DNA of 64,000 bases from a virus (IMGVR_UViG_3300005911_000002:1-64000); one strand, 5' to 3'. Numbered from the stretch's first letter, positions 18,760 through 56,418 are shown. Numbers and translations: made by a program. The notes: generated by a model from the sequence alone, not told the origin.

Positions 18760-18771
18760 GGAAGGTGAATC

Positions 18772-18870
18772 ATGAGATATCTTTTGTGTGGTGCTATGCT
18801 ATCTTTGTTTATTGTTGCTGGTTGGACTTTTTTCAGAGATAACACCGAGAAAACAATACGATTAAACTAA
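18772..18870 (+). CDS. 32-aa membrane peptide (MRYLLCGAMLSLFIVAGWTFFRDNTEKTIRLN)
   Basis: Translated by hand; GAAGGTGA RBS, GGTATAAA upstream, terminator immediately downstream. Confidence 0.55.
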   Translation: MRYLLCGAMLSLFIVAGWTFFRDNTEKTIRLN

Positions 18871-18871
18871 G

Positions 18872-18896
18872 AAAGAGGCCCGGGGGCCTCTTTTTT
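18872..18896. terminator. bidirectional intrinsic terminator
   Basis: AAAGAGGCCC/GGGCCTCTTT stem between convergent genes. Confidence 0.8.
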
Positions 18897-19000
18897 ATTA
18901 CGTAGACATGTCTGTATGTCTAACTTCGTAAACTCTCCTTATTACATTAACCGTACAACTTTTGACAATCGACTCGCGGCTATTTTGGTTGTATTGGGTA

Positions 19001-20815
19001 TCATGACTGTCTACCACACATACTCAACAACTTATACACCGAAGCCATCTTATTCTTAGCGTTCCAAGTATCCTTAGTTACGGAGGTAGGTCCTGGAGCA
19101 AACGGTTTCAATGCCTTAGCCTGTGTTATCGGTTCCGGCACCTTCTCCAGTGGAACCTTGGTATCGGTGTTTGGTTTTACTACACCTTTTATCTTCTTTG
19201 TACTACTACTTGTTCCTGATGGAGTTGAAACCATCGACATCTTATGAAGATTAGCACCTATGCCATGCACGCCCTGGGCGATATTGTTATTCATGGTAGA
19301 GGGTGCTCCAGGCGTTGTTATTGTCGCAGGTGTGATTGGTACTTTGGCCATATCACTCATAGACGTAGCCCCTTCCTTTGGTGCAGTCACGAGCTTAGAT
19401 ATGTTTCTGAAAGTGTTCCCGGTGCTGTTTCCAATATTACCAATGCCGGCATTGCCGATAGGGGTAATTGGGAGTGTCATATTTCCAGCAGCTTTTATCT
19501 CAGCAGCAACCTTGTTGTGTGAGAGTACGTCGTTTAGACCTTCGATAACAGTGCTATCCTTCGAAGACTGTTTCGTTAACTTTCTTAACGTAGATATATT
19601 AGAGTCTATTTGATCACTATCGAAATGAAACCTGTCATATTCTGGAGACCATGACTCCCAGTCGATTACGGTGGGTTTTGCCTTGTCGGATATAAATATG
19701 TTCCCGCCGTGAATATCATTGTGACTTATTTGTTTCTTTTTTAAGAACCCTCGCAAATCCTCAAGACCTTTTATCGCAGGCTCGTACATCTTTTCCTCCT
19801 TCCCCTGAATTATGTCCGCAACACTCATCCCGGGAGCCCTGGTCATTTTAAACCAATCTTTTCCCTTAGAGTGTATCTCTGGCGTAAGTGTGTCCCCCTT
19901 TGACATTGCATAAAATTTCAACTCGTTAGCCATCCGTTCTTGCCAATTAGACGGCTCGATAGTACCACCGTCAAATATCGCCTTTCTTGAGAACTGTTTT
20001 TTTACCAGTTTTTTGTACATGGTAATTAGTGCTGTTGGGGATTCAATTGTTAGCGCTGCAATCTTCTCAATTGCCGTTGTCTCTAACCCCTCCCGAGATA
20101 CACTCGAAACCTTATGTATATGTGAATGTGGGTTTGCATGTCCTGGTAATTTATGTGTAGTATTTTCCGTTCGTTTTATTAATCTTCCTAGTATATCATA
20201 TATGTTCTGGCGTGTATATGCGTCACCCCTAGAGCTTGCAACTGTCTCGTCTACTGTCTTAGTTATTCCTGGCATTACTTGTTTTGCGTAAGAGTTCGAG
20301 TACTTAGTATAACGCCCGGCATCGTCTACCGACATCTTATCTATGAATGTCTGGATGCTGGCTACCTTCTCTTCCACGGGAAGGGCCTCCGCAACCTTCT
20401 CACCCTTAAGCGATCCGAATAACTTCTTCTTGAAATCTTCGATAGACATGATAGTCATCGACCCAAAGAATTTAGGTGAATCATAATGCTTAAGGTACGC
20501 ATTCTTGGCGGAGATAGGTGTGCTGAACCCAAGCATCACCTTATCCTCATCGTACTTACCAGTCTTTGGAAAGTTCTGATGAACCACGTAGACTTCCTTA
20601 GGCTCTTCAACAGGTCCGACGTATACGTCAAGCTTGTCGCCATCGGTACCCCTGCTTCCGAGAATCTCACCATAATGATTACGCATCATGGTGAAGCCCC
20701 CTTTCCAATGTCTTTTCGAACCGGGCTTATTTTCTACGTGGATAGTAATGCCATGTCGTTTTACCGTACCGATAAATGGGTACTCCTTCCGATTTCTTTT
20801 CGGAGGAGGACCCAT
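19001..20815 (-). CDS. polyvalent protein: inorganic-pyrophosphatase-like domain plus protein-kinase-like domain
   Basis: HYGEI...GTDGDKLDVYVG...DEDKVMLGF (InPase-like); HNDIHGGN and IDWE (kinase catalytic loop and Mg-binding motif). Confidence 0.75.
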   Translation of the reverse strand: MGPPPKRNRKEYPFIGTVKRHGITIHVENKPGSKRHWKGGFTMMRNHYGEILGSRGTDGDKLDVYVGPVEEPKEVYVVHQNFPKTGKYDEDKVMLGFSTPISAKNAYLKHYDSPKFFGSMTIMSIEDFKKKLFGSLKGEKVAEALPVEEKVASIQTFIDKMSVDDAGRYTKYSNSYAKQVMPGITKTVDETVASSRGDAYTRQNIYDILGRLIKRTENTTHKLPGHANPHSHIHKVSSVSREGLETTAIEKIAALTIESPTALITMYKKLVKKQFSRKAIFDGGTIEPSNWQERMANELKFYAMSKGDTLTPEIHSKGKDWFKMTRAPGMSVADIIQGKEEKMYEPAIKGLEDLRGFLKKKQISHNDIHGGNIFISDKAKPTVIDWESWSPEYDRFHFDSDQIDSNISTLRKLTKQSSKDSTVIEGLNDVLSHNKVAAEIKAAGNMTLPITPIGNAGIGNIGNSTGNTFRNISKLVTAPKEGATSMSDMAKVPITPATITTPGAPSTMNNNIAQGVHGIGANLHKMSMVSTPSGTSSSTKKIKGVVKPNTDTKVPLEKVPEPITQAKALKPFAPGPTSVTKDTWNAKNKMASVYKLLSMCGRQS

Positions 20816-20904
20816 TGTTACCTCGGTAGTATTTTTGGTAAGTATCTCTGCTATCTTAATTCCCGTGCTTGTCTCCTGTGCTTATCTGCTATTAACCATC
20901 AGTA

Positions 20905-22023
20905 TTACCTACGATCCGTAAGTGCACCATATCCAGAAGAAGCGGCCATTATCCCGCCGAATGTTCCGGGTGCGTAACTAGCTACGTCGGTTATTTTGTT
21001 CGTAATCGCCTGGGTACCGAGATTTTTTTTGGCAGTTGTGAATTTAGATCCTAGCGCTTCGTTTTTTGATATCTGGGAGTCTATTCGGGACTCATTAGCT
21101 TTTAGCGCATCGGTATATACGCCTCTATTAAGTGTCAGATTCTCAGGATCCAATTTTTTAGTTATGCTAGCTCTTGTTTTTGAGAAACCATCCAATTTTC
21201 CTGTACCTTTCCTAAAGTTTCTATCAGCGGTACCCACATCTTCAGCAAGACCCATTAACTTCTGAAGCCTAGCAGGTTCTTGCTTAGCATACCACTTTCT
21301 AAACGCAACTCCACCCACAAGAGCACCTATTGGGATAATCATAGAAAGAGCTCTATCAGTGAATGTTCTATCATCACGATATCTATCGTTATCTCCCTGA
21401 GATCTTTCAGCTGTTTTCTTTTCATCGGAACTGCCGAACAGAATATTAGTAAGTGCAGCTGCACCTGTAAGTCCTCCGGTTGTTTTAATCAGGTCCATCT
21501 CTAACGAAGCATCTGAATCATCAAGTCGCTTAGTAGACTTACCTATTAAACTCGTGGCGTCGTCCTGCCTTATTTGATTAACGTCTAGACGTCCCTGGAG
21601 ATAATTTCCAACCTCGCCAGCGTTCCGACTTTCTGGATTGTTATCCAAGATACCTTTGGTTTTATCATACAGCTTTCGCTCTCTTTCACGTCCCAACCCG
21701 TGGTGTACAAGCCTGCTATTCGGATCGATTATAGTCTTTGTGGTTGGGCTCAAACCCATACTTTTCATAGCTGCGCCTTCCGCCGCTGTGTGCATAGTTG
21801 CTCGTCGATTCTCTACGCCACTTATCATTTTCTTAAGACTGTTGCCCTCATCTCCTAACCCGCTTAAATTATGAGACGTCATTCGGATGGTTTTCTTTAA
21901 ATACTTCTGCAATGCGCTGTACCTGCCAGCAACCAATAGCGGTGATGCCATAGCCGCTACGCCAAGTCCCGCTGCTGCATAATCCCCAACAACCCATTCT
22001 GCCTTCTTAATCTTACTAGTCAT
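20905..22023 (-). CDS. membrane/coiled-coil protein with two TM-hairpin modules
   Basis: Four Gly/Ala-rich hydrophobic helices; KKTAE between the halves. Confidence 0.6.
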   Translation of the reverse strand: MTSKIKKAEWVVGDYAAAGLGVAAMASPLLVAGRYSALQKYLKKTIRMTSHNLSGLGDEGNSLKKMISGVENRRATMHTAAEGAAMKSMGLSPTTKTIIDPNSRLVHHGLGRERERKLYDKTKGILDNNPESRNAGEVGNYLQGRLDVNQIRQDDATSLIGKSTKRLDDSDASLEMDLIKTTGGLTGAAALTNILFGSSDEKKTAERSQGDNDRYRDDRTFTDRALSMIIPIGALVGGVAFRKWYAKQEPARLQKLMGLAEDVGTADRNFRKGTGKLDGFSKTRASITKKLDPENLTLNRGVYTDALKANESRIDSQISKNEALGSKFTTAKKNLGTQAITNKITDVASYAPGTFGGIMAASSGYGALTDRR

Positions 22024-22044
22024 AATACATACCTTCCTTTTTTT

Positions 22045-23481
22045 TTAAAATCTAACTCGGCGCCGGACCATCGGTCTTACGCTAGCGTTAGTTAAGTTTA
22101 ATGGTTGTGAGAATAGCTGATCTACTCTCATTTTGTTTTTCTTCTTTTCTATCTCTTCGTAAGTATCCGGGAAGAAACCTCCCGAGCCAGCTATCCCCGC
22201 ACCGCCTACTATTGCAGCGGCTGGGTACCCCATGCCACCCCGAGCTTTCTCCAGCAACTCCTCAGTGCGGTCACGGTCAGTAAATGCCGGCAAGTGTTCG
22301 TCGGTTGCGTCGATATAGTTCTTCCGGGAACTCGAAAGATCACCGTCAGCGTGGCTTTTAATCGCCTTTCGCGCGGCAACTGCATTATCACTGGCAGTCC
22401 CAAGGTTCTTGTGGGCAACACCTTGTTCCATCGAAGGTGTTGTGTCGGAAAGGTTGCGCATGGTATTTTTAGCACTATCAAAAGCGTCGTTGGCCTTAAC
22501 CCTACTATTATTAAGCTTTTCCGCCTTCCATTGTTCTGATTTCCACATATTCCTAGTTTTAACTACCTGGTCATCGAGGCCTTTGTACCTAGCAGCGCCA
22601 TCCTTAAGAACTTTCTCTAACCCCTTGATCTTCCTACCTTTTAAATAAGCATAGATAGCCCCCCCAGCAGCAATGGTTGTCCCTACTCCTGCAAGTATAA
22701 TCCTCATGGCTTGGTTGATTGTTGTGTCCTCAGCTAATTTGTAGTTCTTGTTATTCTGCTCTTCTGAGTACATTCTAGACCCAAGAATAGTCCCAGAGGC
22801 CAGCATACCGCCCCCAACTAATCCGCTAAATCTTGCTCTATCGTATGTGTATTCTCCGACGTCACTTAGCTCCTGTAGCTCGGAACCCTTACGTTTAAAT
22901 TCATTCAGTGTATTGATCATATCTGTTTTAGTTTTATTAACATGCCCCATATAATCGGGCTTTCTGGCCATCGTGCCCTGTAAATCGTCGAGGTGTCCCC
23001 TAGCTGCTTTCAGGTTTATGGCCGAATCTGCCATATCATTCTGTTTAGCATGAACTTGGTCAGAAAGATCTTTTATCATACTCCGTGCTCGTGAATAGGA
23101 CTCTGTTGGAAGGCGCTCGGCGTCCTGCTTAAGTGCCATTATTTTACTTTTCAGATCCTCTATGTCAGCCACATTCTGCTTAAATATACCCTCCGCTCTG
23201 AGTGCCTTATCTGTCCTGCTAGCAAGATCGGCCATAACCTCAGGACCATTTTGAAATATCTTCTGAGCATCTGCATTACGTGATGTTGCCTCAAGGAACT
23301 CAGCCCCTATGTCTGCAAGGTCTTCTCTTCGTTTCTTAAGCTCTGGCATAAGTTTTTTTAACTTGTGCCTTGCGCCTGCACCCATCAAAGCTATAGCAGA
23401 ACCTACAGCAATAAGTACCGCCGGTACCTTATAGTTCATAGCTGGTGCTGGCTTTCTATCTTCTGAATAATATAGTCCCAT
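22045..23481 (-). CDS. membrane/coiled-coil protein with two TM-hairpin modules
   Basis: GGAGG RBS; TM-coiled coil-TM twice, separated by YKLAE. Confidence 0.6.
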   Translation of the reverse strand: MGLYYSEDRKPAPAMNYKVPAVLIAVGSAIALMGAGARHKLKKLMPELKKRREDLADIGAEFLEATSRNADAQKIFQNGPEVMADLASRTDKALRAEGIFKQNVADIEDLKSKIMALKQDAERLPTESYSRARSMIKDLSDQVHAKQNDMADSAINLKAARGHLDDLQGTMARKPDYMGHVNKTKTDMINTLNEFKRKGSELQELSDVGEYTYDRARFSGLVGGGMLASGTILGSRMYSEEQNNKNYKLAEDTTINQAMRIILAGVGTTIAAGGAIYAYLKGRKIKGLEKVLKDGAARYKGLDDQVVKTRNMWKSEQWKAEKLNNSRVKANDAFDSAKNTMRNLSDTTPSMEQGVAHKNLGTASDNAVAARKAIKSHADGDLSSSRKNYIDATDEHLPAFTDRDRTEELLEKARGGMGYPAAAIVGGAGIAGSGGFFPDTYEEIEKKKNKMRVDQLFSQPLNLTNASVRPMVRRRVRF

Positions 23482-23494
23482 GATTCCTCCAAAT

Positions 23495-26400
23495 TTATTC
23501 TATAACGGACGGGCCGTAAACATATCTAGTAAACATAGATGATTCTGGTCCAGCTATGTGAGTACTATCTCCAAACGCTACTCCCTTCTGTAACGATCCT
23601 TTGAGCTCTCTGTACCCAAGACGCTGTAACCAGTCCTGGTTCATAAGTGGAGACCTGTTAGTTCCAATTATAACCTTGTCGGCCTTTATCGGAGTTGTAA
23701 ACACTCTAACTGTTTCCACACCCTCGTTTAGAAGAGCTTCCATCATCTTATCATCTATCATTGACCTGATAGGAAATCCTGACACACTTTCAGCCAGACG
23801 TTTCCCAACAGAAAATTCTACATCCATTTCTTTAACTGAGTTCTCATTATAATGGTTTACAAACGATGTGTCAACTATGTCTCCAGGAACTACTGATGAT
23901 GATGTTCCTGCATCTGTCACCCTGGAAAATTTACCCATTGACCTCGTAACTACTTCTGCAGTAGATCTCTTAATCCCAACTCCTGCAGATTGGTACAGAC
24001 TTGTTAACTCATCAGCTATAAAATCTAGCGCCGCGTCTGCACCTTTAATGTCCTTAATATCCATTGGATGTATATTTCCATAGCTAACAGAATCCCCAGC
24101 ATGTATCATGTCCCCCTTTTTTACTTTAAGACCTACGGCCGCTGGCACATATAATTTTTTAGTTCCTATATTGACGTCCCAGCCGCCTATAGATGATTCA
24201 TTAATATCCGTAACAAACCCATCCTTAGGGGCTAGGATAGCTCTATCTTTAATCTTCTTAGGTAGTTGGGTTATCTGCCTTATTCTGTCTAAAGACCCGA
24301 TAGCCCCAACACTTGATCCTACTGTAGAACCAGTATGGAACACCCTCATAGCCATTTGAACAAGAGGCTCTCCTAATGTCTGGGCTGCCAACGTTCCTAC
24401 GTTATCACCTTTTCCAGGAAGAATCCCGTTTGCCAGATAGCCATGGCATCTTCTGCAGATACCCTTTATAGCTTTGCACTTAAGAGGAGATCGTGCGTAT
24501 ACTTCCCTAATACCATGATTCTTTAAGTTTTTAATTGCGTTAGCGTCAAGGTGCTGATCTTTTGGGTGAATAACCTTACCACCCACCCGGATGTTACGTA
24601 CTGCAAATCTATTAAGCACCTCTGGTGATGATACAGGGAACATTTTACCTTCTGATGTTTTACAGTCCTCGGTTGTAATAGTTATTCCAGACGAAGCAGC
24701 GAGTATCTCTTTACTGAATGCACCCGGCTCTACAACCGACTTAGCTTTGGACACACCACCCATCCTGGCAGCATAACCCATACCCCAAAAGGCAGATGGG
24801 CTGAGTCCCGATGCGTATGAATCCTTTGATATTATCGGAGGAACGGATCCACCAGGACCCTGGAACATAATAGGTGAACCGATTATCTGTGTAACCGGTG
24901 CCCACTGTCCTTTTGCCCCCGACGCGTCTACATAGTCGTAATATGTGTCTTTCATTCTATCTTTGATAACGTCTTGTATCTTACCTTGGATCTCAGCAGC
25001 GTTCTCTACGCCAGTAACCGTCTTTATAAGGTCGTCGACTTCTTTTATTGGTGCTAAATCATCGTAATTCAAAGACATGCCACGTCTTGTTGCATACGTA
25101 TCTCCAATTAGTTTGACGTCTTTTAGAACCTTCCCTATTTGGTCGGGAGTATTCTTCACCACGCTCTTTACAGCAGCGGACAATGATCCGTCAGTAACTG
25201 CTTCGTTAATATCAACACCATCTGGGAGCGCGTTATTCACCATGATACGTCCTATATTAGTCATTTTGCGTTTAACTTTTATCATATCATTTTCGGAAAT
25301 ATCGCCGGCAAGGTATGCTTCGAGAGCATCCGTAGTCGTTTTATATTTCTTGTCAGTACTCTTACCATCCTTAGTCATAGCATACAGCCCTGTTAGGTCG
25401 TCCCAGCTAGGCATGTTCATAACCTCCCCCTTAGTTGGGTGAATTACGTTATTACTTGGAAGCATGAGGTGCGCCTCGGCCTCAGCCTTAGCAGTTACGG
25501 GAGTATGTACCAGTACCTTGTCACCGTCGAAGTCCATGTTAAACCCTTTAACAACCATCAAAGGTACACGTATAGATTTTCCCTGTACCAGCTTAGGCTT
25601 AAATGCCATAACCCCATACTTGTGTAACGTCGGGGCTCTATTAACTATAACATGTTTTTCGTCCATAACCTTTCCCAGAATCCTGGCTGCTACCGGGGTC
25701 TTGTTATCCACTTCAGCCATAGCCTCGAACGGAGTCATACCTGCAGATAGCATCTTTCTTTTGATCATTGGTTCGAACATCTTATATGCCATCTCTTCCG
25801 GAATACCTATCTCATCTATATCCATCTTAGTGTCAATCGATACCACGCCAGCACCAGTTAGGTTCTGTCTTTTCTTGACCATCTTCTTTTGGAAGTATCC
25901 CTCTTTTGGGCTGTCCCCTGCGATTAGTTCTACAAGTCCTTTCTGGTTAGCTTTCTTTGGGTTGAGTCTAGCTTTATCTGAGGCAGTCGCGTATCCCATA
26001 AGCCTCTTAGTTTGATCGTAGATATCCTTAGCTATATTTTCCTGCTCACGCTGAGGAACAAACTTACTTTTCGATGCATTATTTAATAGTATTAAATCTT
26101 TATATAGATCATTTAAAGGTGAGTTAATTAAATTCCCAGTATCATCTGGATACACGGGCCTAATCTTAGGTGGTACAACCGGCACATTGTGTAAAAAGAA
26201 TGATCTAGCTGTGAGTTTCCCGTCTATCATGTTCTTGAGAAACCTCATCTTCTTGTTCAATTTATTCAGCGCACTACCTTCTGCAGTAGCCGCTTCTTTT
26301 TTTAGGTTAGCAAGCTCCTCCTCCGGAGATATTTTGGATAGCATGGCCTGCATAGCGTCCCCAAATTTTTTACCATCAACCTCAGTTCTGCCCGCTACTA

Positions 26401-29400
26401 AGTCGTCGTACTGCGTTTGGGTTATATCCAATATATTCTTAATAGCTGGCTCAAATACTGGGTTAGGTATCTTACGTGTAAGTGCTATGTGTGACCAATT
26501 CTCTCCGTCGGTGCCGCCAGTTATCTTAATATCAAATAACCCGTTTTTTTCCGGTAGCAATGTTTTTGCAATTACCACTTTTGCCTCAGTAACCTCTCCC
26601 TTAGACTGCCCTAAAATATCCCTGTCGGTAAGTGGTACAAGTTTTATCTGATCGCCACTCTTCTTAGGCTTTATCCCGGCGCCCTTTAAATAGTCCATAA
26701 ACATATGGTATGAAAAAGTTGGGCTCGGTGTAGGTAGTTGTGATCCTGTGATATACGATCTCCAAAATTCAGGGTTGTCCTGTGATTTATATATGGCTAT
26801 GTCTCGGAGGTTGGCCTTAGCACCGTGTGCCATTAGAGAATACATCGGCAACATCCCTACGGTCTTCCCCCCAGACTTACCACCAGCAGTAGGAGTCTTA
26901 TCGAATCCTGTCGGCCCATAATAACTTCTAGCAGAGAACCCCTTATCCTCTTTGTATTTTAGTTTATAAATATATTGCTTTCCCCAAAGAACCTTGTCGG
27001 TAGTCTCTTCCCCCTCTACCATGAGTTTCTCATTGGGCTTTATTCCTAGTTCATCAGCTTTTTTTTTAACCGAAGTATAATAACTTTCATCGCTAAACCC
27101 TGGAACCATTATAGGCGCACCTTGCGCATCCGCAACCCTGCCGAGAACAACTTCGTGCTCCTGTCCAACGTTCAATCTCTTCTGTACTGGTAGAGGTGAC
27201 ATGATCAACCCTATCTTCTCACCATTAGGAGCCGTCGGGGCTTTCTCATCTGGGAATACTGCAGAAATTATACCCTTGTTACCGTATCGTCCGGAAACCT
27301 TATCACCCTTCTTTGCTTGCTCGGATGTTTTTACCTCTATGAAAATAGCCTTACCAGTATCGCGTACTGATATAACTTCACCGGAAGCTCCATGCTCCCA
27401 TCTAACTATCTTTTCCCTGAAAGGACTAGACAATGTAGAATGCACTTTTGCCAAAAGCTTGTCTTCCTCGGACAACGACTTTTCTACAAGGTATGCGGCG
27501 ATCACACTTCCGTCGTGAACCTTCGACCCTTTCTTAACAATACCATCCTGATCCAAGTTACTTGTCTCCAGGGAGGATAACTTACCCATCGCAACGTTCT
27601 TAAAACGTGTGAAATCGAAGTGAGCTCCCTTTTTTGAAATCTCCATCTTGTACATATGCTCTGACGTCATCTTCTTGGCACCAGATTCAAACAGCACGAT
27701 AGCATCCTCTGAATTCATAGAATGATACGGCATATAAGCCACATTAAGATTAACGCCAAGAGCCAGTGTATCGTCTTTTTCATAGTTTGACCTCATAAGT
27801 TTATCGCCTTTCTTAACGGTGCTACCTTCTGATACAGATGCTTCTGTAGTAACGTAAGAACTATCCCCTATCTTGTAATTCTGGTAGAAGGGTAGTTTCT
27901 CCGTTTCACCATTCTCATACTCGACGGTCATGCTCTTCTTTCCAACCGAAGTAACCTTCCCAGCTCCTTGTGCGGTAGGGACAGAATCCCGTGCCATAAT
28001 CTTCTCGAAGGAGGTTCCTGTTCTGTCATCAAGTGTCTGTATAAGGGGGGCTTCTGGGTTCTTTAGTAGTAATGTCTGCCCTGCCATCTTGGCGGACATA
28101 TTAACCCTGTTACCCATATTACTGCTTAAAAACGGAGTTAGGTTTGTTGATGGTGAGTATAGCTCAGTAGCATACCTGAATATATAATCCACCTCGCTAG
28201 AAGGAACTTTATCCTCACTCCCCTTACTAACGGCATATACCTCGTCATCACGCCATTGTTTCTTATTGTAGTCATATTGGCCTGCAAATGCGATCGTGTA
28301 CTTGTACATGTCATCATTAGATACACTCTCTTCCTGGCCTGTTTTTGGATTATATAATTTCTTAGAAAACGCATCGCCCTTCTGCATAGTTCCAACAGGA
28401 AGTTTGACAGAAATACCAGCAGCGTCATCCGGTGTATGGAGTGGATCCAGTACCCCTGCAGAAGAGCCGTAAACCATCATGGCTTTTTCGGTTATAGCAT
28501 GGTCTGACTCAATACCACCCTCACCTTTCCTGGTGTAGTGTATATCCTCATCTATAAAATTTAGCGGATTTACAAAATCTATAGGGGCTGCAAGCGACGA
28601 CTGGTTAAATAGCGGTGTTATATTCCCATTAAGGTAGTTAGTTGGGACAATCTCTTTAATAGTTTTACGAGTTCTCATACGAACTTTTAACGCACCCTGG
28701 CTACTCTTGACCTTGCGTGGATTTAGTATATAATCGTCCGATAACATGGCTACCTCATCAACTGCCTTTGCAAAATACGAGTCATCCTTGTTATCCTGTT
28801 TCCCGTTGTCCTTGAAAACCTCGAGTATCCTTGATGACGTAGCTAACAGGGTTTTGGCATCCATCTTTTCGAAGGATGTTCCGAGAGTTTTCTCAGTTGT
28901 TTTTTTGTCGAGGACTGTGTCGTTAAACCTGTCCTCCACAGCTCCCTCGGCGGCGTCTATATCTTTGTATGCTTTGTATGTATAGTTTGTTGCAAAGTTT
29001 AAAAAGTCAGACTCATGCTTGCTACCCCTAGAAGAGTTCGCTTCAAAAAGTTCTGGCCCCCATGCTTCTCGCATATCAGAATCAGGTATATCCAGGTGTG
29101 TAAGTATCGAGTACACCGGATATTTTCTGCCTTTAAGTACAACAGTGAATATCTTCTTTACAGGGTCAAGAGACATTGTTAGGTTGTGTCCTTTTTGGAG
29201 GTTCAACTTGGCCTCGATCTCCCCGTTTTTCTTCACTTCGGTGTATACTCCAGACCGCAGCCTGAGCATTTTGGTTACCTTGAATTCGGTACCACCCACG
29301 ATATATGTGCCAGCAGCTGTTCTAACGGGCATATCCCCAATCTTGACCTTAGCCTTATCAATTAGCTCAGTACCAACCCTAAAGGAAAAGGTTCCGTAAA

Positions 29401-29605
29401 TAGGTACAGTCAGGGACTTATCGCTTTCCAGGAGTTTCCTGAATTTTTCAGGGTTTATTACATCCGCGTTGTTTGTATTAATACTTAGCTTGTCTAGTGA
29501 GAGTGATCTGCTACCGTCCGTTATTGGGAACGCTGCTTCCTTGTATTTCTCAAATACCTCAGCGAGTCTATCGTTAAATTCCTTGGCACTTTTTATATTA
29601 TACAT
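23495..29605 (-). CDS. rpoBC: phage multisubunit-type RNA polymerase, fused beta-beta' single chain
   Basis: beta: GDKVSGRYGNKG, NSEDAIV, GGKSGGKTVG; beta': NRAPTLHK, NMDFDGD, bridge helix, CxxC Zn site, AAQTLGEP..Q.AMRVFHTG trigger loop; no internal stop; start at ATG 29605 (GAAGGGG RBS plus promoter). Confidence 0.95.
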   Translation of the reverse strand: MYNIKSAKEFNDRLAEVFEKYKEAAFPITDGSRSLSLDKLSINTNNADVINPEKFRKLLESDKSLTVPIYGTFSFRVGTELIDKAKVKIGDMPVRTAAGTYIVGGTEFKVTKMLRLRSGVYTEVKKNGEIEAKLNLQKGHNLTMSLDPVKKIFTVVLKGRKYPVYSILTHLDIPDSDMREAWGPELFEANSSRGSKHESDFLNFATNYTYKAYKDIDAAEGAVEDRFNDTVLDKKTTEKTLGTSFEKMDAKTLLATSSRILEVFKDNGKQDNKDDSYFAKAVDEVAMLSDDYILNPRKVKSSQGALKVRMRTRKTIKEIVPTNYLNGNITPLFNQSSLAAPIDFVNPLNFIDEDIHYTRKGEGGIESDHAITEKAMMVYGSSAGVLDPLHTPDDAAGISVKLPVGTMQKGDAFSKKLYNPKTGQEESVSNDDMYKYTIAFAGQYDYNKKQWRDDEVYAVSKGSEDKVPSSEVDYIFRYATELYSPSTNLTPFLSSNMGNRVNMSAKMAGQTLLLKNPEAPLIQTLDDRTGTSFEKIMARDSVPTAQGAGKVTSVGKKSMTVEYENGETEKLPFYQNYKIGDSSYVTTEASVSEGSTVKKGDKLMRSNYEKDDTLALGVNLNVAYMPYHSMNSEDAIVLFESGAKKMTSEHMYKMEISKKGAHFDFTRFKNVAMGKLSSLETSNLDQDGIVKKGSKVHDGSVIAAYLVEKSLSEEDKLLAKVHSTLSSPFREKIVRWEHGASGEVISVRDTGKAIFIEVKTSEQAKKGDKVSGRYGNKGIISAVFPDEKAPTAPNGEKIGLIMSPLPVQKRLNVGQEHEVVLGRVADAQGAPIMVPGFSDESYYTSVKKKADELGIKPNEKLMVEGEETTDKVLWGKQYIYKLKYKEDKGFSARSYYGPTGFDKTPTAGGKSGGKTVGMLPMYSLMAHGAKANLRDIAIYKSQDNPEFWRSYITGSQLPTPSPTFSYHMFMDYLKGAGIKPKKSGDQIKLVPLTDRDILGQSKGEVTEAKVVIAKTLLPEKNGLFDIKITGGTDGENWSHIALTRKIPNPVFEPAIKNILDITQTQYDDLVAGRTEVDGKKFGDAMQAMLSKISPEEELANLKKEAATAEGSALNKLNKKMRFLKNMIDGKLTARSFFLHNVPVVPPKIRPVYPDDTGNLINSPLNDLYKDLILLNNASKSKFVPQREQENIAKDIYDQTKRLMGYATASDKARLNPKKANQKGLVELIAGDSPKEGYFQKKMVKKRQNLTGAGVVSIDTKMDIDEIGIPEEMAYKMFEPMIKRKMLSAGMTPFEAMAEVDNKTPVAARILGKVMDEKHVIVNRAPTLHKYGVMAFKPKLVQGKSIRVPLMVVKGFNMDFDGDKVLVHTPVTAKAEAEAHLMLPSNNVIHPTKGEVMNMPSWDDLTGLYAMTKDGKSTDKKYKTTTDALEAYLAGDISENDMIKVKRKMTNIGRIMVNNALPDGVDINEAVTDGSLSAAVKSVVKNTPDQIGKVLKDVKLIGDTYATRRGMSLNYDDLAPIKEVDDLIKTVTGVENAAEIQGKIQDVIKDRMKDTYYDYVDASGAKGQWAPVTQIIGSPIMFQGPGGSVPPIISKDSYASGLSPSAFWGMGYAARMGGVSKAKSVVEPGAFSKEILAASSGITITTEDCKTSEGKMFPVSSPEVLNRFAVRNIRVGGKVIHPKDQHLDANAIKNLKNHGIREVYARSPLKCKAIKGICRRCHGYLANGILPGKGDNVGTLAAQTLGEPLVQMAMRVFHTGSTVGSSVGAIGSLDRIRQITQLPKKIKDRAILAPKDGFVTDINESSIGGWDVNIGTKKLYVPAAVGLKVKKGDMIHAGDSVSYGNIHPMDIKDIKGADAALDFIADELTSLYQSAGVGIKRSTAEVVTRSMGKFSRVTDAGTSSSVVPGDIVDTSFVNHYNENSVKEMDVEFSVGKRLAESVSGFPIRSMIDDKMMEALLNEGVETVRVFTTPIKADKVIIGTNRSPLMNQDWLQRLGYRELKGSLQKGVAFGDSTHIAGPESSMFTRYVYGPSVIE

Positions 29606-29639
29606 GAACGTTGTGTCCCCTTCATAACCGATTTCTCTA

Positions 29640-29668
29640 ATTCTATCACGTTCAAGATTTGTTGTCAA
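29640..29668 (-). promoter_or_regulatory. sigma70/sigmaA-type promoter of the RNAP gene
   Basis: TTGACA-17-TAGAAT with extended TG on the minus strand. Confidence 0.7.
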
Positions 29669-29727
29669 TTTGCATAATATATTATATATTAACCCAGTAA
29701 TAGGAAGGTGACTAGGAAATATCATTC

Positions 29728-30178
29728 TGTCATGTTTTGACCCATAAATGTCATGTTTCGGGTCAAAAATGTCATGTTTCGGGTCAAAAATGTCATGTCT
29801 AAAAATCAGTGCTCACCTACTACTATACTATACTATAACTATTATATTTATATATATATAATAATAGAATACATGACAAAATACCAGAATTATTAATGGT
29901 AACTACTCATGTACGGATTGAAAAAAATTATTAATTAGTGTTTCATTTTTTTTTATGGTTTCCCTAAGGGGGTACATTTTTTTTTCTACATTTTTGTCAT
30001 GTCTGAGAGTAAATGCCTTGGTACGACTGGTCGGAAGCGCGAGACATTTTGTTTTCAAAATGTCATGTCTAGTTTTGATAGAAGTCTGATATCCCCGTCT
30101 ATGACTAGTCTAGACCCCTGTCAAAAACGTCATATTTTTGTCATGTCATTTTGTCCTGTTTGGGTATTTTTGTCCTGT
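29728..30178. repeat. iteron array plus AT-rich tract; candidate replication origin
   Basis: TGTCATGT at 29728, 29749, 29770, 29791 (21-bp period), inverted at 29871, again at 29995, 30061, 30139; TGTCCTGT at 30152, 30171; AT tract 29820-29870. Confidence 0.75.
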
Positions 30179-30248
30179 TTTGTTTATGATCGCACATAGT
30201 TTTGTAACAATTGTTACAATTTTGGTATAAATGACCAAGGAGGGATTT

Positions 30249-30635
30249 ATGAACCGAGAAAAAAATTGGGAGAATCCGGCTGTGGGATATTTGTATGCTA
30301 GCGGACGGATACATGATTCAAGTCTTGTTTGTAGTGGTATTCCGTGTGGGAGAAAAAACCAGAGTGCGGTAGTAAGCCTGGACTATCTTGGCTGCATAAT
30401 GCGTAAGCACCACCCCGATGGAATACAAAACATACTAAACCTGCTTTCTGATAGTGGGACGGGTTATGTAGTAGTTTCGTCGGCTAACTATCTTAAGAAG
30501 CTATCTACTAGTGCCAGACTTCTGAGTCAGTGCCATGGGTACTTTGTTCTAACCAAACTAGAGTACCCTGTACTACGGAGAGCTAGGATGTATAATATAT
30601 ACATTCTAAAAAAGAGGTGGGGCGTTATAATATAG
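30249..30635 (+). CDS. hypothetical protein
   Basis: ATG after AGGAGGG RBS; GGTATAAA upstream; hairpin and T-run downstream. Confidence 0.55.
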   Translation: MNREKNWENPAVGYLYASGRIHDSSLVCSGIPCGRKNQSAVVSLDYLGCIMRKHHPDGIQNILNLLSDSGTGYVVVSSANYLKKLSTSARLLSQCHGYFVLTKLEYPVLRRARMYNIYILKKRWGVII

Positions 30636-30671
30636 AGAGAGGGGCCCACCCCTTTCTTTTACCTGATAGAA

Positions 30672-30700
30672 TTGACAACAGAATTGTAATATGTTATGAT
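30672..30700 (+). promoter_or_regulatory. sigmaA-type promoter of the head operon
   Basis: TTGACA-17-TATGAT with extended TG. Confidence 0.75.
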
Positions 30701-30727
30701 ATGAAAAAGTAGTCCAGGAGTAAAAAT

Positions 30728-31420
30728 ATGAAAGTACCTACAGATATAATGAAGCACGCGGAGCATGCGGCGTCTAAATATCTCAACGATGGTGTTGAGA
30801 TGAACTACACCATAACTAAGATAGCTAAGGATTCCTGCATGAACTCCGACAAGATTGATAGGGTATGTGAGGTTGCTAATCATTTGGTAAATAAGGTTGC
30901 GGTTAAAGTTCAGGATCGGTACACAGCATTTCCCGTAGCGGACCCAACCAAAGTAAAAGTGGCAGTGGATTCTCTTGAAGGAAACCTTTCTCCTTTGAGC
31001 CGACGGGTATCCGACACTACAAAAGATAGTGATAAGGTAGAGAAGAAGACCGCATCGATTAAAAATACCCGGGAGGATATACCAACGTATGATCAGTTAT
31101 CGGTTAAGATAGCTAAAGTACGAATGGATCTCGGAGATAAGACTGCATCGGTTATTGATATTATATCAAATATCGCCAAGGAAGTTGGGATTGATAACGC
31201 CGAGGAGTATCTTACAAAGGTAGGTAGTGCTCTGCCGGAAATGATTAAAGATCACATATTAATAGAAGCGTTGGATAAGAGCGCCAGTACTATAACTACT
31301 AAAGTGGCTAACATAGTGTTTATCGAGGATGACTCGGATGCAGAGTGCATACAAGGTCTCGCCGACTCACTCAAATTATCTCACGAGTTATCTATTTTGA
31401 GGGACCATTTTTATGGCTAA
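30728..31420 (+). CDS. head-module protein (K-x-A rich)
   Basis: KKTAS, DKTAS, DKSAS and TKVAN motifs; first gene of the head operon. Confidence 0.6.
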   Translation: MKVPTDIMKHAEHAASKYLNDGVEMNYTITKIAKDSCMNSDKIDRVCEVANHLVNKVAVKVQDRYTAFPVADPTKVKVAVDSLEGNLSPLSRRVSDTTKDSDKVEKKTASIKNTREDIPTYDQLSVKIAKVRMDLGDKTASVIDIISNIAKEVGIDNAEEYLTKVGSALPEMIKDHILIEALDKSASTITTKVANIVFIEDDSDAECIQGLADSLKLSHELSILRDHFYG

Positions 31421-40524: not shown

Positions 40525-41004
40525 ATGCGAGTAGTAATAGAACCTAAAACACAACTACCATATCAGAATAAAGAGTTATCAGATGATAGATATAAGCAGC
40601 TACTGCTGTTTAAGTGTATCGAAGAGATAAAAAAAGTAATGGCTTCGGGGATATTTAAACACCCTACGGGAGCACTTATGAACTCTATAAACGGGTATGT
40701 TGTTGGCGAATATATCATTATCTATTCAGATAAACAATACGCGACAGCGCAGGAGTTCGGGGTTAAGCCCCATGCTATGTGGTATCTACTTGGGAAGACC
40801 GTCCCGATTAAAATATTCAACACATTTGGCGGTCCTCCTAAAACGATCTATAGGAAGGTTACCTTCGAAGCGTTGTCCAGGGGTAAGTGGCATCATCCGG
40901 GTTCTCCGGGGAAATACTTTATGAAAACAGGTATTGACAAAGCAATGTCCCAGGCAACGGAGTTAAGGATGAAGATGATAAGTGGGGGGAATGTATTCAT
41001 ATGA
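40525..41004 (+). CDS. neck/virion morphogenesis protein (HK97 gp10-like)
   Basis: TGALMNSI...YA..QEFG...W.HPG...FM pattern. Confidence 0.6.
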   Translation: MRVVIEPKTQLPYQNKELSDDRYKQLLLFKCIEEIKKVMASGIFKHPTGALMNSINGYVVGEYIIIYSDKQYATAQEFGVKPHAMWYLLGKTVPIKIFNTFGGPPKTIYRKVTFEALSRGKWHHPGSPGKYFMKTGIDKAMSQATELRMKMISGGNVFI

Positions 41005-41714
41005 TTAAAATAGCAGGATATCAGGGAGTTTCTACTGTAGACTACCCTGGAAAACTTTCGTTTGTGATGTATACTTATGGGTGCCCCATGAGGTGCCCTT
41101 ACTGTTTCAATAGTGCTCTCGTAGATCCATGTATGGAAAAAGATATGACATTCCTAACAAAAGATGATATCTACTCTGTGCTGGATTCTAGAAAAGATTT
41201 TGTAGAGGCTATCGTTATATCTGGTGGAGAGCCTACCCTACATTCAGGGTTAATACCGTTTATTAGGGAGCTCAGGGATAGGTATCCGTTAGCTATCAAA
41301 GTAGATACTTCCGGGATAAACCCAGGAGTCCTGCTAAAACTTATGGATGGGGTGGACTATATCGCCATGGATGTGAAAACATCTTTTGATAAGTATAGTA
41401 TGTTCTCCCCGGATGTAACTGCTTGGAGGAGAATACTCGAGAGTATGGTATTTTTAAATAATAACGGTAGGTGTGACTATGAGTTTAGAACTACCGTGTG
41501 GAAGGGCGGATTCAATCTAGAGGATGCAGTTTTAGTAGCTAGATTTATGTCAGGCGGTGCTACATATTATCTACAGAACTTGGTGGATAACGCTAGCCCG
41601 ATGCTTCTCCCAGACAAAGTCGGGGATGAGAGATATACGAAGAAAGAAGTGCTTGCGATAGCAAAAGAACTCGGGGATTCCGGAGTAACTGTAAAACTTA
41701 GGGGGTTTGATTAA
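41001..41714 (+). CDS. nrdG: anaerobic ribonucleotide reductase activase (radical SAM)
   Basis: S.VDYPG, GCPMRCPYCFN (CxxxCxxC), SGGEPT, YEFRTT. Confidence 0.9.
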   Translation: MIKIAGYQGVSTVDYPGKLSFVMYTYGCPMRCPYCFNSALVDPCMEKDMTFLTKDDIYSVLDSRKDFVEAIVISGGEPTLHSGLIPFIRELRDRYPLAIKVDTSGINPGVLLKLMDGVDYIAMDVKTSFDKYSMFSPDVTAWRRILESMVFLNNNGRCDYEFRTTVWKGGFNLEDAVLVARFMSGGATYYLQNLVDNASPMLLPDKVGDERYTKKEVLAIAKELGDSGVTVKLRGFD

Positions 41715-53777: not shown

Positions 53778-55705
53778 TATGCCCTCCCCGTAGCAGTTAG
53801 TACTTGTTGCATCAGCCCTTCAATTTTAGACATATATTCCCTGGATTCATCTATATTTACTTTTGATAATTCAGCATAGGATGCCATTATATTACCCGAC
53901 AGCCTATTAGCATAATCGACTGAAGTAAACTCAGTTATAAGTATATCTAATACCGCAAGCATATCTACACTAGTGGTTTCGAGCTTTAGTTTCCTCAGCT
54001 CCTGACACAAGCTACCTTCGTATGTAGATGTTGTAGGCGTTGCCTTAAATACATCTTTAGTTGCACCCTTGCCAATGTCATCCCCGAGTTTTTTAAGACC
54101 CGCGGTATCGGCTGTGCTCTTTATATCCTCTAAAAAATTATCTTTAAAATCTTTAACGGGGGTAGAGTCTAACTTGTTATACGCAGATATTACACTGACT
54201 ACTTCAGTATTAAACGAAGTTAGCATGGTCTCGGTAGTTGACCGTAGTTCCGGTGTCATGACTTGCGCTCCAGTTATAAGGTCCTCTACAATCCTAAGGG
54301 CAGCACTAGCTTTATATACAACCTCGGTAGTATCCGGCTCCTCCCACGCAGACACTGCAGTTGCTGCCGATGTATACGCTGACTTTGCCACGAGAGGCAT
54401 ACTGGCTACAGCTGCACGCCCAACACTTGACGTTGCAATAGAGTCCAGATATGAAAGCATATCAGTAAACGAATCGTAAACGTCACGATAATACGGTAAC
54501 CCCTTCGACCTAGATGTCGATTGCGTATACGCCGCGGTCTTCTGCTCCAGGTCTTCGATTTTACCTTTTATAGCTCCCGGCATTACTTTTTGTAAAAAAT
54601 TAGATCGAGCATATTTCTCGGTATCGCTGAACAACGACATAGCCATATTAAGTTGATATCGTATGCCACTGGTATTCTCCGAGTTATATAGCGTGTAAGA
54701 TACTATATTTGAGAGAATATCACTGAACGATACCCCATATAAAATACCCTGCACTAAAATCCCTTCCAAGGTTGTTGTATCGTACTGACGACTAAAGCTT
54801 ATAAGATTTGCCGATGGCATGCTTCTCCCCATTAGTTGGGCAACTTGCTCTGGTGTGAATGACCCGGACATCTCTTGTAGTGCTATGGATGTAATAATAC
54901 TTTCTGGAGTAGCTCCCGACGTCATACCTACTATAACCTGCGTGGCAACCCCGTTAGGAAAGTATTTTCCGAATATACTCGATATCATAGTGTTCTGGGC
55001 TGTACCTTGCATAACTGCGGAGAGTATTTCTGGAGGAAGTAGTGCCCTAAGCTCATTATAGGCAGCGTCTTTTACAATATCACTCGTAAGGTTACGTCCC
55101 ACAAGACCATTTAGCAGGGCCGCGGATATCTTAGAGTCTATTGTTGTAGGGAGTATTTCCTGTGGGAGTGTTTTATTAGATACCATTTGTATCAGACCCC
55201 AAGCATCACTTATGGTACTTGACATCCCAGATAGTACAGTTCTTAATACCTGGGCCCCAAGGTCATATCTGTACGGCTCAGTGCTAACTATATTCTTTAC
55301 AGTTGAGATTGTGCCAGATACGTCCGGTATGTCGTAGTTACCGCTCAATGCCTCACCCAGAAGAGAGCTTATTGGGCTAGCCATATTCTCCAGGGCGCTA
55401 ACAGCCTCGTCTCTAAGGGTAGTGGCATGGGATATCGCATTAAAACCCATCCCTAGTATAGTTGTTGGAGAAGTTGTCATCCTTTGCAGCATAGACGCTT
55501 GTATTCGGTCCGTAGTACTCGTGTCTTTTAGATTATCAATGGGTGTCATATTATACTGGTCCATTGTTTTTTTCATCTGACCTGCCAATGCTAGTGCAGT
55601 TCCTTCTTCTTTATCAAGGGTCTGGTTCTTCTGCTTTTTCCACTCCTTGTACTCTTTCAGAGAATTACGCACCTCACTGTCAGTATACCATGTGTATGTA
55701 GTCAT
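53777..55705 (-). CDS. hypothetical tail/baseplate protein
   Basis: 642-aa helical ORF, coupled within the baseplate operon. Confidence 0.55.
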   Translation of the reverse strand: MTTYTWYTDSEVRNSLKEYKEWKKQKNQTLDKEEGTALALAGQMKKTMDQYNMTPIDNLKDTSTTDRIQASMLQRMTTSPTTILGMGFNAISHATTLRDEAVSALENMASPISSLLGEALSGNYDIPDVSGTISTVKNIVSTEPYRYDLGAQVLRTVLSGMSSTISDAWGLIQMVSNKTLPQEILPTTIDSKISAALLNGLVGRNLTSDIVKDAAYNELRALLPPEILSAVMQGTAQNTMISSIFGKYFPNGVATQVIVGMTSGATPESIITSIALQEMSGSFTPEQVAQLMGRSMPSANLISFSRQYDTTTLEGILVQGILYGVSFSDILSNIVSYTLYNSENTSGIRYQLNMAMSLFSDTEKYARSNFLQKVMPGAIKGKIEDLEQKTAAYTQSTSRSKGLPYYRDVYDSFTDMLSYLDSIATSSVGRAAVASMPLVAKSAYTSAATAVSAWEEPDTTEVVYKASAALRIVEDLITGAQVMTPELRSTTETMLTSFNTEVVSVISAYNKLDSTPVKDFKDNFLEDIKSTADTAGLKKLGDDIGKGATKDVFKATPTTSTYEGSLCQELRKLKLETTSVDMLAVLDILITEFTSVDYANRLSGNIMASYAELSKVNIDESREYMSKIEGLMQQVLTATGRA

Positions 55706-56418
55706 AATTTGCTTACTTTCTCTTTTAGTATATTTGAAATTCGCAGTCTAACTGAGCTAACCCACCTGGGTGACTTATTTTCCTGTATTGCAATATCTTG
55801 TGTAGATTTTCCGCTAAGTAGACTATCCATTATGCGATTTTCGGTCTCATCAAGTTCATACCTAGTCATCTCAAGTAAATCTTTTGGTGTGTAGTTCCGC
55901 ACAACGGAATCATCTCCACGTCCAACGTCAGCTTCTGGTTCGAGAGTATAATCTTTCCGAACCATTCTTCGTAGATCCCTTACTTGAGTTTGTGGTATAT
56001 TCATGTGGGTAGCTATCTCAAGCTCGTCAGGATCTCTCCCAAGGGATTCAGTGAGCTCCGTTACAGCCGTGTTATATGGTGAGATAAGTTGTATTTTACT
56101 TTCCGGGATTCTCCCCGTGTTTTGATGATTTCCAACATACCTATATAATTTTCTCAGATAGTAATCAACATGAGTTCCTATGGCAGCTTTCCCAGGTTTG
56201 TACGTTTCCAGAGCTTTGCCGGCTAGCCTATACCCCTCAGCCTTTATAGCTTGGAACGGTATCGGGGCGTTTCTATACTTACTTGCATGGTGAACTATAG
56301 CAGGTGTGAGGGACTCCATTAAATCATCAAGGGACTCTGTACTCCCCGTATCTTTCCAATCAGTCCATAACGCAAGCTGCCTATCAAATCTTGTTGTGGT
56401 ATTCGGCTGAGATTCCAT
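55702..56418 (-). CDS. sigma70-family RNA polymerase sigma factor
   Basis: Region 2 (EG...A.KALETY.P.K....T...Y), region 3 (LGRDP...EIA..M.I....V), region 4 HTH (L...E..I.......S..DIA). Confidence 0.85.
   Translation of the reverse strand: MESQPNTTTRFDRQLALWTDWKDTGSTESLDDLMESLTPAIVHHASKYRNAPIPFQAIKAEGYRLAGKALETYKPGKAAIGTHVDYYLRKLYRYVGNHQNTGRIPESKIQLISPYNTAVTELTESLGRDPDELEIATHMNIPQTQVRDLRRMVRKDYTLEPEADVGRGDDSVVRNYTPKDLLEMTRYELDETENRIMDSLLSGKSTQDIAIQENKSPRWVSSVRLRISNILKEKVSKL

Follow-up and report, generated by a model that had tools for sequence, protein, structure and literature searches.

A fused beta-beta' RNA polymerase in a phage genome and the family around it

The window analysed here, a stretch of 64,000 nucleotides (nt) of a viral record (IMGVR_UViG_3300005911_000002:1-64000), carries on its minus strand one open reading frame (ORF) where the subunits beta and beta' of a bacterial-type RNA polymerase (RNAP) follow each other in a single chain of 2036 amino acids (aa). 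What kind of enzyme is this, and how might the phage use it? With moderate confidence, we favour a reading in which a whole bacterial-type core is contained in one chain, within a phage-specific lineage whose fusion is ancestral, and in which this core would work with a sigma factor of the phage itself. In every cellular RNA polymerase, to our knowledge, an alpha (Rpb3/11) platform is what the two large subunits are assembled on. The present family takes the route opposite to that of the split, sigma-less enzymes of phiKZ and AR9, keeping the full beta/beta' fold in one chain and pairing it with a true sigma. The record that holds the window is an IMG/VR virus of 73,212 bp with a CheckV completeness of 41%, from which a genome size of about 180 kb follows.

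Architecture of the single chain

The gene, its parts and its promoter are arranged as follows, with residues numbered after the 2076-aa long reading of the ORF (P0001), in which Met41 corresponds to nt 29605.

29640..29668, minus strand: sigma70-like promoter, TTGACA-17-TAGAAT with TG, 35 nt upstream of 29605
23495..29605, minus strand: coding sequence of the single-chain beta-beta' RNAP, 2036 aa plus stop, starting at Met41
26651..29605, minus strand: beta module, aa 41-1025 (Pfam and NCBIfam, alignment to PDB structures, AlphaFold2 and Foldseek)
28076..28096, minus strand: SAKMAGQ, replacing NMQRQ of cellular enzymes (alignment, coordinate check)
27272..27292, minus strand: GRYGNKG, the active-site lysine motif of beta, aa 812-818, with K817 invariant in the family
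23498..26650, minus strand: beta' module, aa 1026-2076 (alignment to Thermus beta', AlphaFold2 and Foldseek)
26441..26542, minus strand: site of the deleted N-terminal zinc ribbon of beta', 34 aa without cysteine
25520..25540, minus strand: NMDFDGD, the Mg-binding Asp triad, aligned to NADFDGD of Thermus beta'
24446..24664, minus strand: second zinc site, with four cysteines (aa 1688, 1750, 1757 and 1760) conserved in the family
24326..24391, minus strand: N-terminal arm of the trigger loop (..MRVFHTGS), by alignment

The long reading (23495..29725, minus strand) has an extended start that is probably unused. Since homologue N-termini align from P0001 positions 37-44, the Shine-Dalgarno-like GAAGGGGA just upstream of 29605 and the promoter are both placed to serve the inner start, and residues 1-42 are modelled as disorder at a predicted local distance difference test (pLDDT) below 50, Met41 is the likelier start, as an earlier sequence-only reading of this DNA had already chosen. 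That reading had also described one ORF with beta motifs followed by beta' motifs and a junction between 26640 and 26700, and both points hold. Pfam, NCBIfam and PHROGs agree on the order, with Rpb2_6 at aa 597-935 and Rpb1_1, _2, _3 and _5 over aa 1125-1939, and with the NCBIfam models for rpoB and rpoC covering aa 284-1019 and 1114-1955, respectively. In comparison with solved structures, aa 358-1025 align with residues 446-1147 of Staphylococcus aureus and Bacillus subtilis beta, and aa 1027-1070 with residues 8-51 of Thermus beta'. As the two alignments abut at aa 1025/1027, the C-terminus of beta joins the N-terminus of beta' without a linker, at about nt 26650. The junction is bridged unchanged by contigs of two runs that are not flagged as sources of the record, X4 (25933-26874) and X5 (26187-27871), and neither a stop nor a frameshift is seen there in these bridging contigs. 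Elsewhere, run X5 (2010) has contigs with single-base indels at 24117, 24155, 26365, 27059 and 29191, the last in just one of the overlapping contigs, while X6 has one indel, at 24901. The X5 indels are absent from the other three runs where these cover the position (X6 and X7 have zero depth at 27059), and low-depth errors of reads or assembly are their probable cause.

The modelled structure agrees with this division. The beta and beta' halves reach pLDDT values of 85.1 and 85.7 in the AlphaFold model, with predicted template-modelling (pTM) scores of 0.76-0.79, and Foldseek finds query-normalised template-modelling (TM) scores of 0.75-0.78 between the first half and bacterial beta and of 0.78-0.84 between the second and bacterial beta'. 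Judged by these models, the enzyme is a complete yet lean two-barrel core of the bacterial type, with both folds kept. In the beta module, the fork, the flap, the double-psi beta-barrel and the C-terminal clamp part are present, and the protrusion and lobe are shortened and divergent; in the beta' module, the alignment contains the bridge helix and the trigger loop, whose His is invariant in the family. A search of BFVD returned no fused relative, the top matches being separate viral beta' proteins of 1127 and 1192 aa.

The three altered motifs noted earlier, SAKMAGQ, GRYGNKG and NMDFDGD, were verified by coordinate, and the family puts them in perspective. At the NMQRQ position, the consensus across the family is [AS][KR]Mxx-Q, and the variable residue of GRxGNKG alternates between His, Tyr and Phe, the change from His to Tyr being common. 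Across 33 family rows, the three aspartates of the triad (D1398, D1400 and D1402) never vary; the Met before DFDGD is a minority variant, which 4 of 25 inspected full-length rows have and the other 21 lack. Likewise borne out by alignment are the loss of the N-terminal zinc ribbon and the retention of the second zinc site. The ribbon segment has 34 aa and no cysteine, compared with 70 aa and five cysteines in a cellular fused rpoBC (P0068), and its cysteines are found in none of the 67 phage rows of the alignment.

Compared with the cellular rows, three deletions can be discerned: the ribbon (32 columns), a piece of the clamp (39 columns) and part of the beta lobe (about 63 columns). A fourth candidate, a gap of 130 columns that follows aa 789 when three cellular rows are the reference, was rejected because the beta chains of S. 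aureus and B. subtilis have no more than small gaps in this part of the alignment; it is probably an insertion in those three rows. The sequence-only reading had called the enzyme streamlined and much shorter than its cellular counterparts. Shorter it is, with 2036 aa against 1342+1407 in Escherichia coli (26% shorter) and 1183+1207 in S. aureus; the saving is modest, about 15% relative to beta plus beta' of the smallest bacterial cores with a solved structure, those of S. aureus and B. subtilis. In the segment of rifampicin cluster I, most positions differ from S. aureus and B. subtilis beta, and the phage enzyme is predicted to be insensitive to rifampicin.

A phage family and its known relatives

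The sequence-only reading treated the enzyme as a singular oddity. This view did not survive, as the fusion, the ribbon loss and the changed NMQRQ motif turned out to be traits of a large family that includes cultured phages. With P0001 as the sole query, no close relative was found in IMG/VR, and, if a 238-aa fragment (P0122) at 94% is set aside, no protein anywhere comes closer than 35% identity. A word-indexed protein search returned 126 proteins at E<=1e-10, comprising 28 full fusions (2000-2150 aa, longer with inteins), 38 proteins that consist of beta and the N-terminal half of beta' (1450-1500 aa when intein-free), one further, truncated row (P0037), and, for the rest, cellular beta, cellular beta' and two cellular rpoBC fusions (P0068 and P0121). 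The junction segment spans 62-70 aa in the 67 phage rows, save for one outlier of 81 aa (P0064). In an exhaustive HMMER search with a 200-residue query across the junction against 50%-identity clusters, 338 clusters matched at E<=1e-30, a number that rises to 975 at E<=1e-10, and the match of all 150 listed representatives runs unbroken through the junction. At least 510 loci in IMG/VR are related, the best 80 of which were examined; in this set, whose ranking favours query-like forms, 64 are full single ORFs, 10 are clipped by contig ends, 4 encode beta with the N-terminal part of beta', and 2 are broken elsewhere. The latter two, with a break within beta at about aa 700 (L125, 12235-12272) and about 25 residues before the beta/beta' boundary (L142, 12844-12857), may be real splits, frameshifts or errors. 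Sequence words of the RNAP gene were found in rows from 19 studies, mostly labelled as salt-lake metagenomes.

In many members, the gene is interrupted by inteins or homing-endonuclease inserts, 330-530 aa in length (P0002, P0005, P0008, P0012, P0019, P0022, P0025, P0053 and P0060-P0067). Their sites recur after P0001 positions 433, ~810-817, ~927-980, 1276, 1401 and ~1795; the insert after 1401 interrupts the triad (DFDG|D), that at ~1795 lies in the trigger loop, and one protein has up to six inserts.

How did the divided and undivided forms arise? In a FastTree tree of their shared part, from which the truncated row P0037 was excluded, all 38 split forms fall into one starred clade, so that the split needs a single change. 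The fully fused forms make up an outer grade with a cellular fusion as outgroup, a rooting on one long outgroup. By this topology, the fusion appears to be ancestral in the phage lineage, and the division into beta plus N-terminal beta' and C-terminal beta' to be derived.

With respect to cellular enzymes, more than 600 beta' matches were found, the best 80 of which are uniformly 24-29% identical and come from, among others, Patescibacteria, Actinomycetota, Bacillota, Atribacterota and Pseudomonadota. A beta' tree was inferred by an IQ-TREE quick search (LG+C20, 41 rows, 1029 columns, with no archaeal outgroup and no reference sequences of the mReC lineage discussed below). In this tree, 18 fused phage rows form one clade and 21 bacterial rows another, at support values of 100 and 98, respectively, in the Shimodaira-Hasegawa-like approximate likelihood-ratio test (SH-aLRT). 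The sequences thus place the fused phage family in a clade of its own, inside none of the sampled bacterial phyla; as the tree has no archaeal outgroup, a position outside Bacteria cannot be claimed. A phylogeny had been proposed earlier as a check for recent capture from a bacterium, and both the separate clade and the flat identity across phyla speak against one. In the same tree, a beta' from a metagenome-assembled genome labelled Alistipes (L084) falls among Clostridia, and its contig is possibly mis-binned.

The cellular rpoBC fusions P0068 and P0121, presumably of the Helicobacter and Wolbachia types, resemble the phage enzyme in having beta and then beta' in one chain. They differ in size (2838-2906 aa), and P0068 has both a linker, with a junction window of 85 rather than 62 aa, and a zinc ribbon with five cysteines. 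P0068 groups with Bacteria in the beta' tree; the position of P0121 is unsure because its branch is very long (3.37) and is set apart from all other rows by the midpoint root. The cellular and phage fusions are independent events.

Among phage enzymes, the closest precedent is that of Weinheimer and Aylward (2020), who mined IMG/VR for 97 'mReC' contigs whose beta and beta' branch deeply, as a clade outside Bacteria (PMC7481178; here and below, statements on published work refer to main texts). The window's family is likely this mReC lineage. Both come from metagenomic tailed phages, have beta and beta' that can be aligned to cellular profiles and form a separate clade; two of the three example mReC contigs stem from metagenome 3300017989, which is also the source of a 2026-aa fusion in our set (L118); and the TerL of Salmonella phage Arash matches PF03237 (25.5 bits), as do mReC TerLs (PMC7481178), this profile being matched in Arash alone. 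Two differences stand beside these likenesses. The mReC capsids match PF07068, with capsids in only 8 of the 97 contigs (PMC7481178), whereas this profile of the gp23-type capsid has no match in the window record, the L118 record, Arash or Vibrio phage D69, and is matched only in a T4-like Rhizobium phage. Furthermore, the inclusion filter NADxDGD (PMC7481178) would exclude the window protein with its NMDFDGD, which concerns a filter and not a biological definition. The main text of that study speaks of 'beta and beta' subunits' and mentions a fusion for crAssphage only, the gene tables of its supplement being outside our scope; it has no mention of sigma or alpha, and has omega only in Clustal Omega (PMC7481178).

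In phage collections, the nearest records are the Vibrio phages D69, D181 and D148 (~187 kb) and Salmonella phage Arash (180.8 kb), at 29% identity and 70-92% coverage. Arash and D69 share with the window enzyme both the position of the junction between beta and beta' and the lack of the zinc ribbon; there, beta' is cut after about 450 residues and continued by a second gene of about 600 aa, while the window enzyme is undivided. The split pairs are Arash gp206 (1525 aa) with gp216, and D69 0261 (1527 aa) with 0264. By local tblastn, the window record shares with Arash and D69, at 21-36% identity, TerL, the DNA polymerase PolA, a protease-like protein, four head or structural proteins, the sigma factor and one more protein. 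The RNA polymerase passages of the Arash paper annotate gp206 and gp216 as beta and beta' and mention no fusion there, the words 'fused' and 'fusion' not having been searched for (PMC10585845).

Other phage systems are more distant. The enzymes of phiKZ and AR9 are likewise two-barrel phage RNAPs without alpha and omega, one set of which is packaged in the virion (PMC7598289); they differ in consisting of 4-5 polypeptides, in being far more divergent, and in having gp68 or gp226 instead of a sigma homologue (PMC7598289, PMC7824862, PMC13282480). One chain with a true sigma70-family factor is the opposite design, and the PHROG matches of the window RNAP to phiKZ/AR9-type families are weak. The crAss-like gp66, YonO and the P23-45 TMP-RNAP also have both barrels in one polypeptide, and some of them are delivered by the virion; these are enzymes that are minimal or similar to RNA-dependent RNA polymerases, without detectable similarity to COG0085/0086 (PMC7481178), whereas the window RNAP has all the domains of bacterial beta and beta'. 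Rhizobium phage RHph_Y65 (Kleczkowskaviridae) encodes a bacterial-like beta' at 25% identity, which differs in being a separate 1127-aa gene of a T4-like phage with a gp23 capsid, in keeping the zinc-ribbon cysteines and in falling on the bacterial side of the tree, on a long branch. The literature searched, in main texts and not supplements (including PMC7481178, PMC7598289, PMC7824862, PMC13282480 and PMC10585845), yielded no description of the fusion. The phage RNAP lineage is therefore known in outline, and its fused architecture is undescribed in the literature searched.

Partners, promoters and possible modes of action

A six-frame profile search for alpha (PF01000, PF01193) and omega (PF01192) gave no match in the 73-kb record or in the complete genomes of Arash and D69, the controls being positive in 14 of 14 genomes. 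This extends to the whole record the earlier remark that the window lacks both genes, and we infer from the absence that the enzyme may be alpha-independent. A candidate partner is found in the sigma factor of the phage, together with its predicted docking site:

55702..56418, minus strand: phage sigma70-family factor, 238 aa (Sigma70_r3, alignment to sigma70, homologue in the Gp10 region of Arash)
26012..26158, minus strand: clamp helices of beta', aa 1190-1238, predicted docking site of sigma (AlphaFold2, complex prediction)

The 238-aa protein matches Pfam Sigma70_r3 above the cut-off and aligns by phmmer to residues 378-531 of E. coli sigma70 (regions 2-3). Over residues 29-234 it also matches positions 2-164 of 165 of the NCBIfam sigma70-ECF superfamily profile, at 22.7 bits against a cut-off of 42.9; because this match is below the cut-off, region 4 is weakly supported. 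The factor is conserved in Arash, in the region encoding Gp10, and in D69. When its complex with the 420 N-terminal residues of the beta' part was predicted alongside controls, it scored 0.81, the best control reaching 0.00, with at least 52% of contacts shared between runs and a partner pLDDT of at least 75. The mark applied in such predictions is reached by 58 of 80 solved complexes and by 2 of 110 mismatched pairs. In the predicted interface, the clamp helices contact residues 49-67 of sigma. As holoenzyme structures are solved, the prediction is to be read as a likeness, not as proof of binding. Nevertheless, the partnership proposed from the sequence alone gains support from the sigma70-family identity, the conservation in Arash and D69 and the predicted docking.

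Sites resembling the RNAP promoter, of the type TTGACA-17-TGnTAnAAT, lie 28-40 nt before eight other ORF starts, including those of head genes. The -10 ends of these promoters are at 1722, 9148, 30700, 35636, 37298, 46401, 65586 and 67088, and at 29640 for the RNAP gene. They could be read by the host enzyme or by an RpoD-like phage holoenzyme. Over a 12-kb scan (18700-30800), promoter-like sites are not enriched, with 19 against a mean of 25.5 in shuffled sequence.

Taken together, we propose the following mechanism. The single chain would fold by itself into a crab-claw core, the covalent link standing in for the alpha dimer as assembly platform; it would recruit the phage sigma70-family factor through the clamp helices of beta', and the resulting holoenzyme would initiate at phage promoters, its altered rifampicin pocket causing it to ignore the drug. 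With less certainty, the enzyme could be carried in the capsid and enter with the DNA, as in relatives, which would make the host polymerase dispensable from the first minutes.

For this last step, two lines of evidence can be named. First, among the 80 loci, a portal-like gene is found within 10 kb of the RNAP gene in 56 (median ~1.3 kb upstream), TerL in 44 (median ~6.4 kb downstream), a homologue of the window's TerL in 40, and a 413-aa protein just downstream of RNAP in 48, the window homologue of which lies at 113-1666. By its gene neighbours, the RNAP gene lies in a head/packaging module in most relatives. Second, in mass spectrometry of Arash virions, the beta-fusion Gp206 has the most spectra (3516), next to 1210 for Gp216 and 467 for the sigma Gp10, in a search of a phage-only database that called 116 of 272 proteins particle-associated (PMC10585845). 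By analogy, packaging of the RNAP in the virion is suggested, and only suggested.

Several observations weigh against the proposal as a whole. The NCBIfam scores are far under the equivalog cut-offs, with 421 against 963 bits for rpoC, 267 against 896 for rpoB, and 368 against 5372 and 320 against 4632 for the two rpoBC fusion models. An Ala-to-Met substitution adjoins the Asp triad. Alpha and omega are absent as judged by sequence profiles, in a record of ~41% completeness; their genes could sit off-contig, or host alpha could be recruited, and Helicobacter rpoBC fusions retain alpha. The score of the sigma-beta' complex may reflect the model's memory of solved holoenzymes. In the window, the RNAP gene lies beside replication genes and not beside a recognisable portal, and its promoter, being of the same sigma70-like class as those of other genes, fits expression by host RNAP after infection. 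Finally, with 116 of 272 proteins in the particles and a phage-only database, carry-over is likely in the Arash preparation, and host alpha would have been undetectable.

Some of these points carry over into alternative explanations. The one that survives best is a middle or late polymerase that never enters the virion: once the DNA is injected, the genes of RNAP and sigma would be transcribed by the host RNAP, with the phage holoenzyme then taking over. We regard this as a real possibility, short of being probable. In its favour are the sigma70-like promoter 35 nt before the RNAP start and its likes at eight other ORFs, the place of the gene among replication genes, and the suspicious breadth of the Arash 'virion' proteome. 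However, the phage sigma is itself RpoD-like in regions 2-3, so that the phage holoenzyme may read such promoters, and promoter-like sites do not exceed shuffled sequence in 18700-30800. Moreover, RNAP, the C-terminal beta' protein and sigma are among the most-detected particle proteins of Arash, and most relatives have head-module synteny.

Somewhat unlikely, in our view, is a hybrid in which host alpha2, perhaps with omega, combines with the phage beta-beta' chain and the phage sigma. The bacterial folds of beta and beta' are fully kept, so that surfaces for contact with alpha could persist; cellular rpoBC fusions (P0068, P0121) exist, of a kind known to keep alpha; and the Arash mass spectrometry was blind to host proteins. 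Yet at 24-29% identity to cellular beta', and with hosts as unrelated as Salmonella, Vibrio and a salt-lake host, conserved docking to each host's alpha is less likely, and other multisubunit RNAPs of phages function without alpha (PMC7598289).

A decayed, catalytically dead relic is highly improbable. Three near-universal motifs do deviate (at the NMDFDGD, NMQRQ and GRHGNKG positions), but these deviations are family-wide or recur across lineages, no variation is seen at the metal-binding Asp, the Lys residues or the His of the trigger loop, and selection is implied by a 6.1-kb ORF that stays open at 30-35% identity over hundreds of lineages. We reject outright a misassembled, contaminating or recently captured bacterial rpoB-rpoC, or a stop lost by sequencing error: some database 'phage' records (unannotated Listeria, Staphylococcus) do hold bacterial rpoBC, but nothing found here supports such an origin for a gene that stands in a phage context, never exceeds 29% identity to cellular proteins, falls into a separate clade, and has a junction recurring in hundreds of clusters and 64 of 80 loci and bridged by contigs of independent runs.

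In its boldest form, the single-chain proposal amounts to a two-gene machine. Here, the beta-beta' chain and sigma, without alpha and omega, would be packed in the capsid and injected, allowing a phage of ~180 kb to run its entire programme from canonical-looking sigma70-type promoters and to bypass the host polymerase throughout; the fusion would be an adaptation for refolding after delivery without an assembly platform, and the result the simplest cellular-type holoenzyme known. This extension is speculative, and we hold it to be doubtful. Even so, what would alpha-independence of the single-chain core mean? If it holds, the enzyme would constitute a minimal 'cellular-type' holoenzyme, offer a direct test of the need for alpha, omega and the beta' zinc ribbon, and provide synthetic biology with a compact, probably rifampicin-insensitive and sigma-programmable polymerase. 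With Salmonella phage Arash and Vibrio phage D69 in culture, the question of alpha can be tested now. The window's own addition is smaller, namely a single member that is fully fused, very divergent and unusual in the Met beside its catalytic triad.

Genomic surroundings

Downstream of the RNAP gene, a short string of genes continues in the same direction:

19001..23481, minus strand: three genes co-directional with RNAP, encoding proteins of 478 aa, 372 aa and 604 aa, the last with an InPase domain

The RNAP gene and these three genes may form one operon. The string is closed by the 604-aa protein (19001-20815, minus strand), whose N-terminal InPase (inorganic pyrophosphatase) domain is of a kind seen in 'polyvalent' or minor-head proteins of virions.

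Upstream of the RNAP gene, the window's 11 ACATGACA sites are concentrated in the region 29726-30230, which has 8 of them, where chance gives a mean of 2.1 and a maximum of 6. Four of these are spaced at exactly 21 bp (29728-29798) and adjoin a very AT-rich stretch, and the region coincides with the minimum of the cumulative GC skew and the point of divergent transcription. A general phage promoter element was considered for ACATGACA and rejected; because the sites are confined to one intergenic region, they look like an iteron/origin or an operator array.

The remainder of the record has the gene content of a tailed phage, with TerL (7500-9083; matching PF05876 and phrog_675), ThyX, a SNF2 helicase, a PD-(D/E)XK nuclease, a family-A DNA polymerase (PolA), NrdD, an NrdG-like protein, a head-protease-like protein and head genes. 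No tRNA genes were found in the window. NrdD, an anaerobic ribonucleotide reductase with an ATP-cone (49985-52393), and a gene similar to radical-SAM activases (41001-41714) hint at an anaerobic or microoxic host. Finally, an IS607-type insertion within the phage structural region (44216-46017), with a GC content of 0.33 against ~0.43 nearby, encodes a serine-recombinase TnpA (Resolvase domain, phrog_6620) and a TnpB (OrfB_IS605, Cas12f-like TNB).

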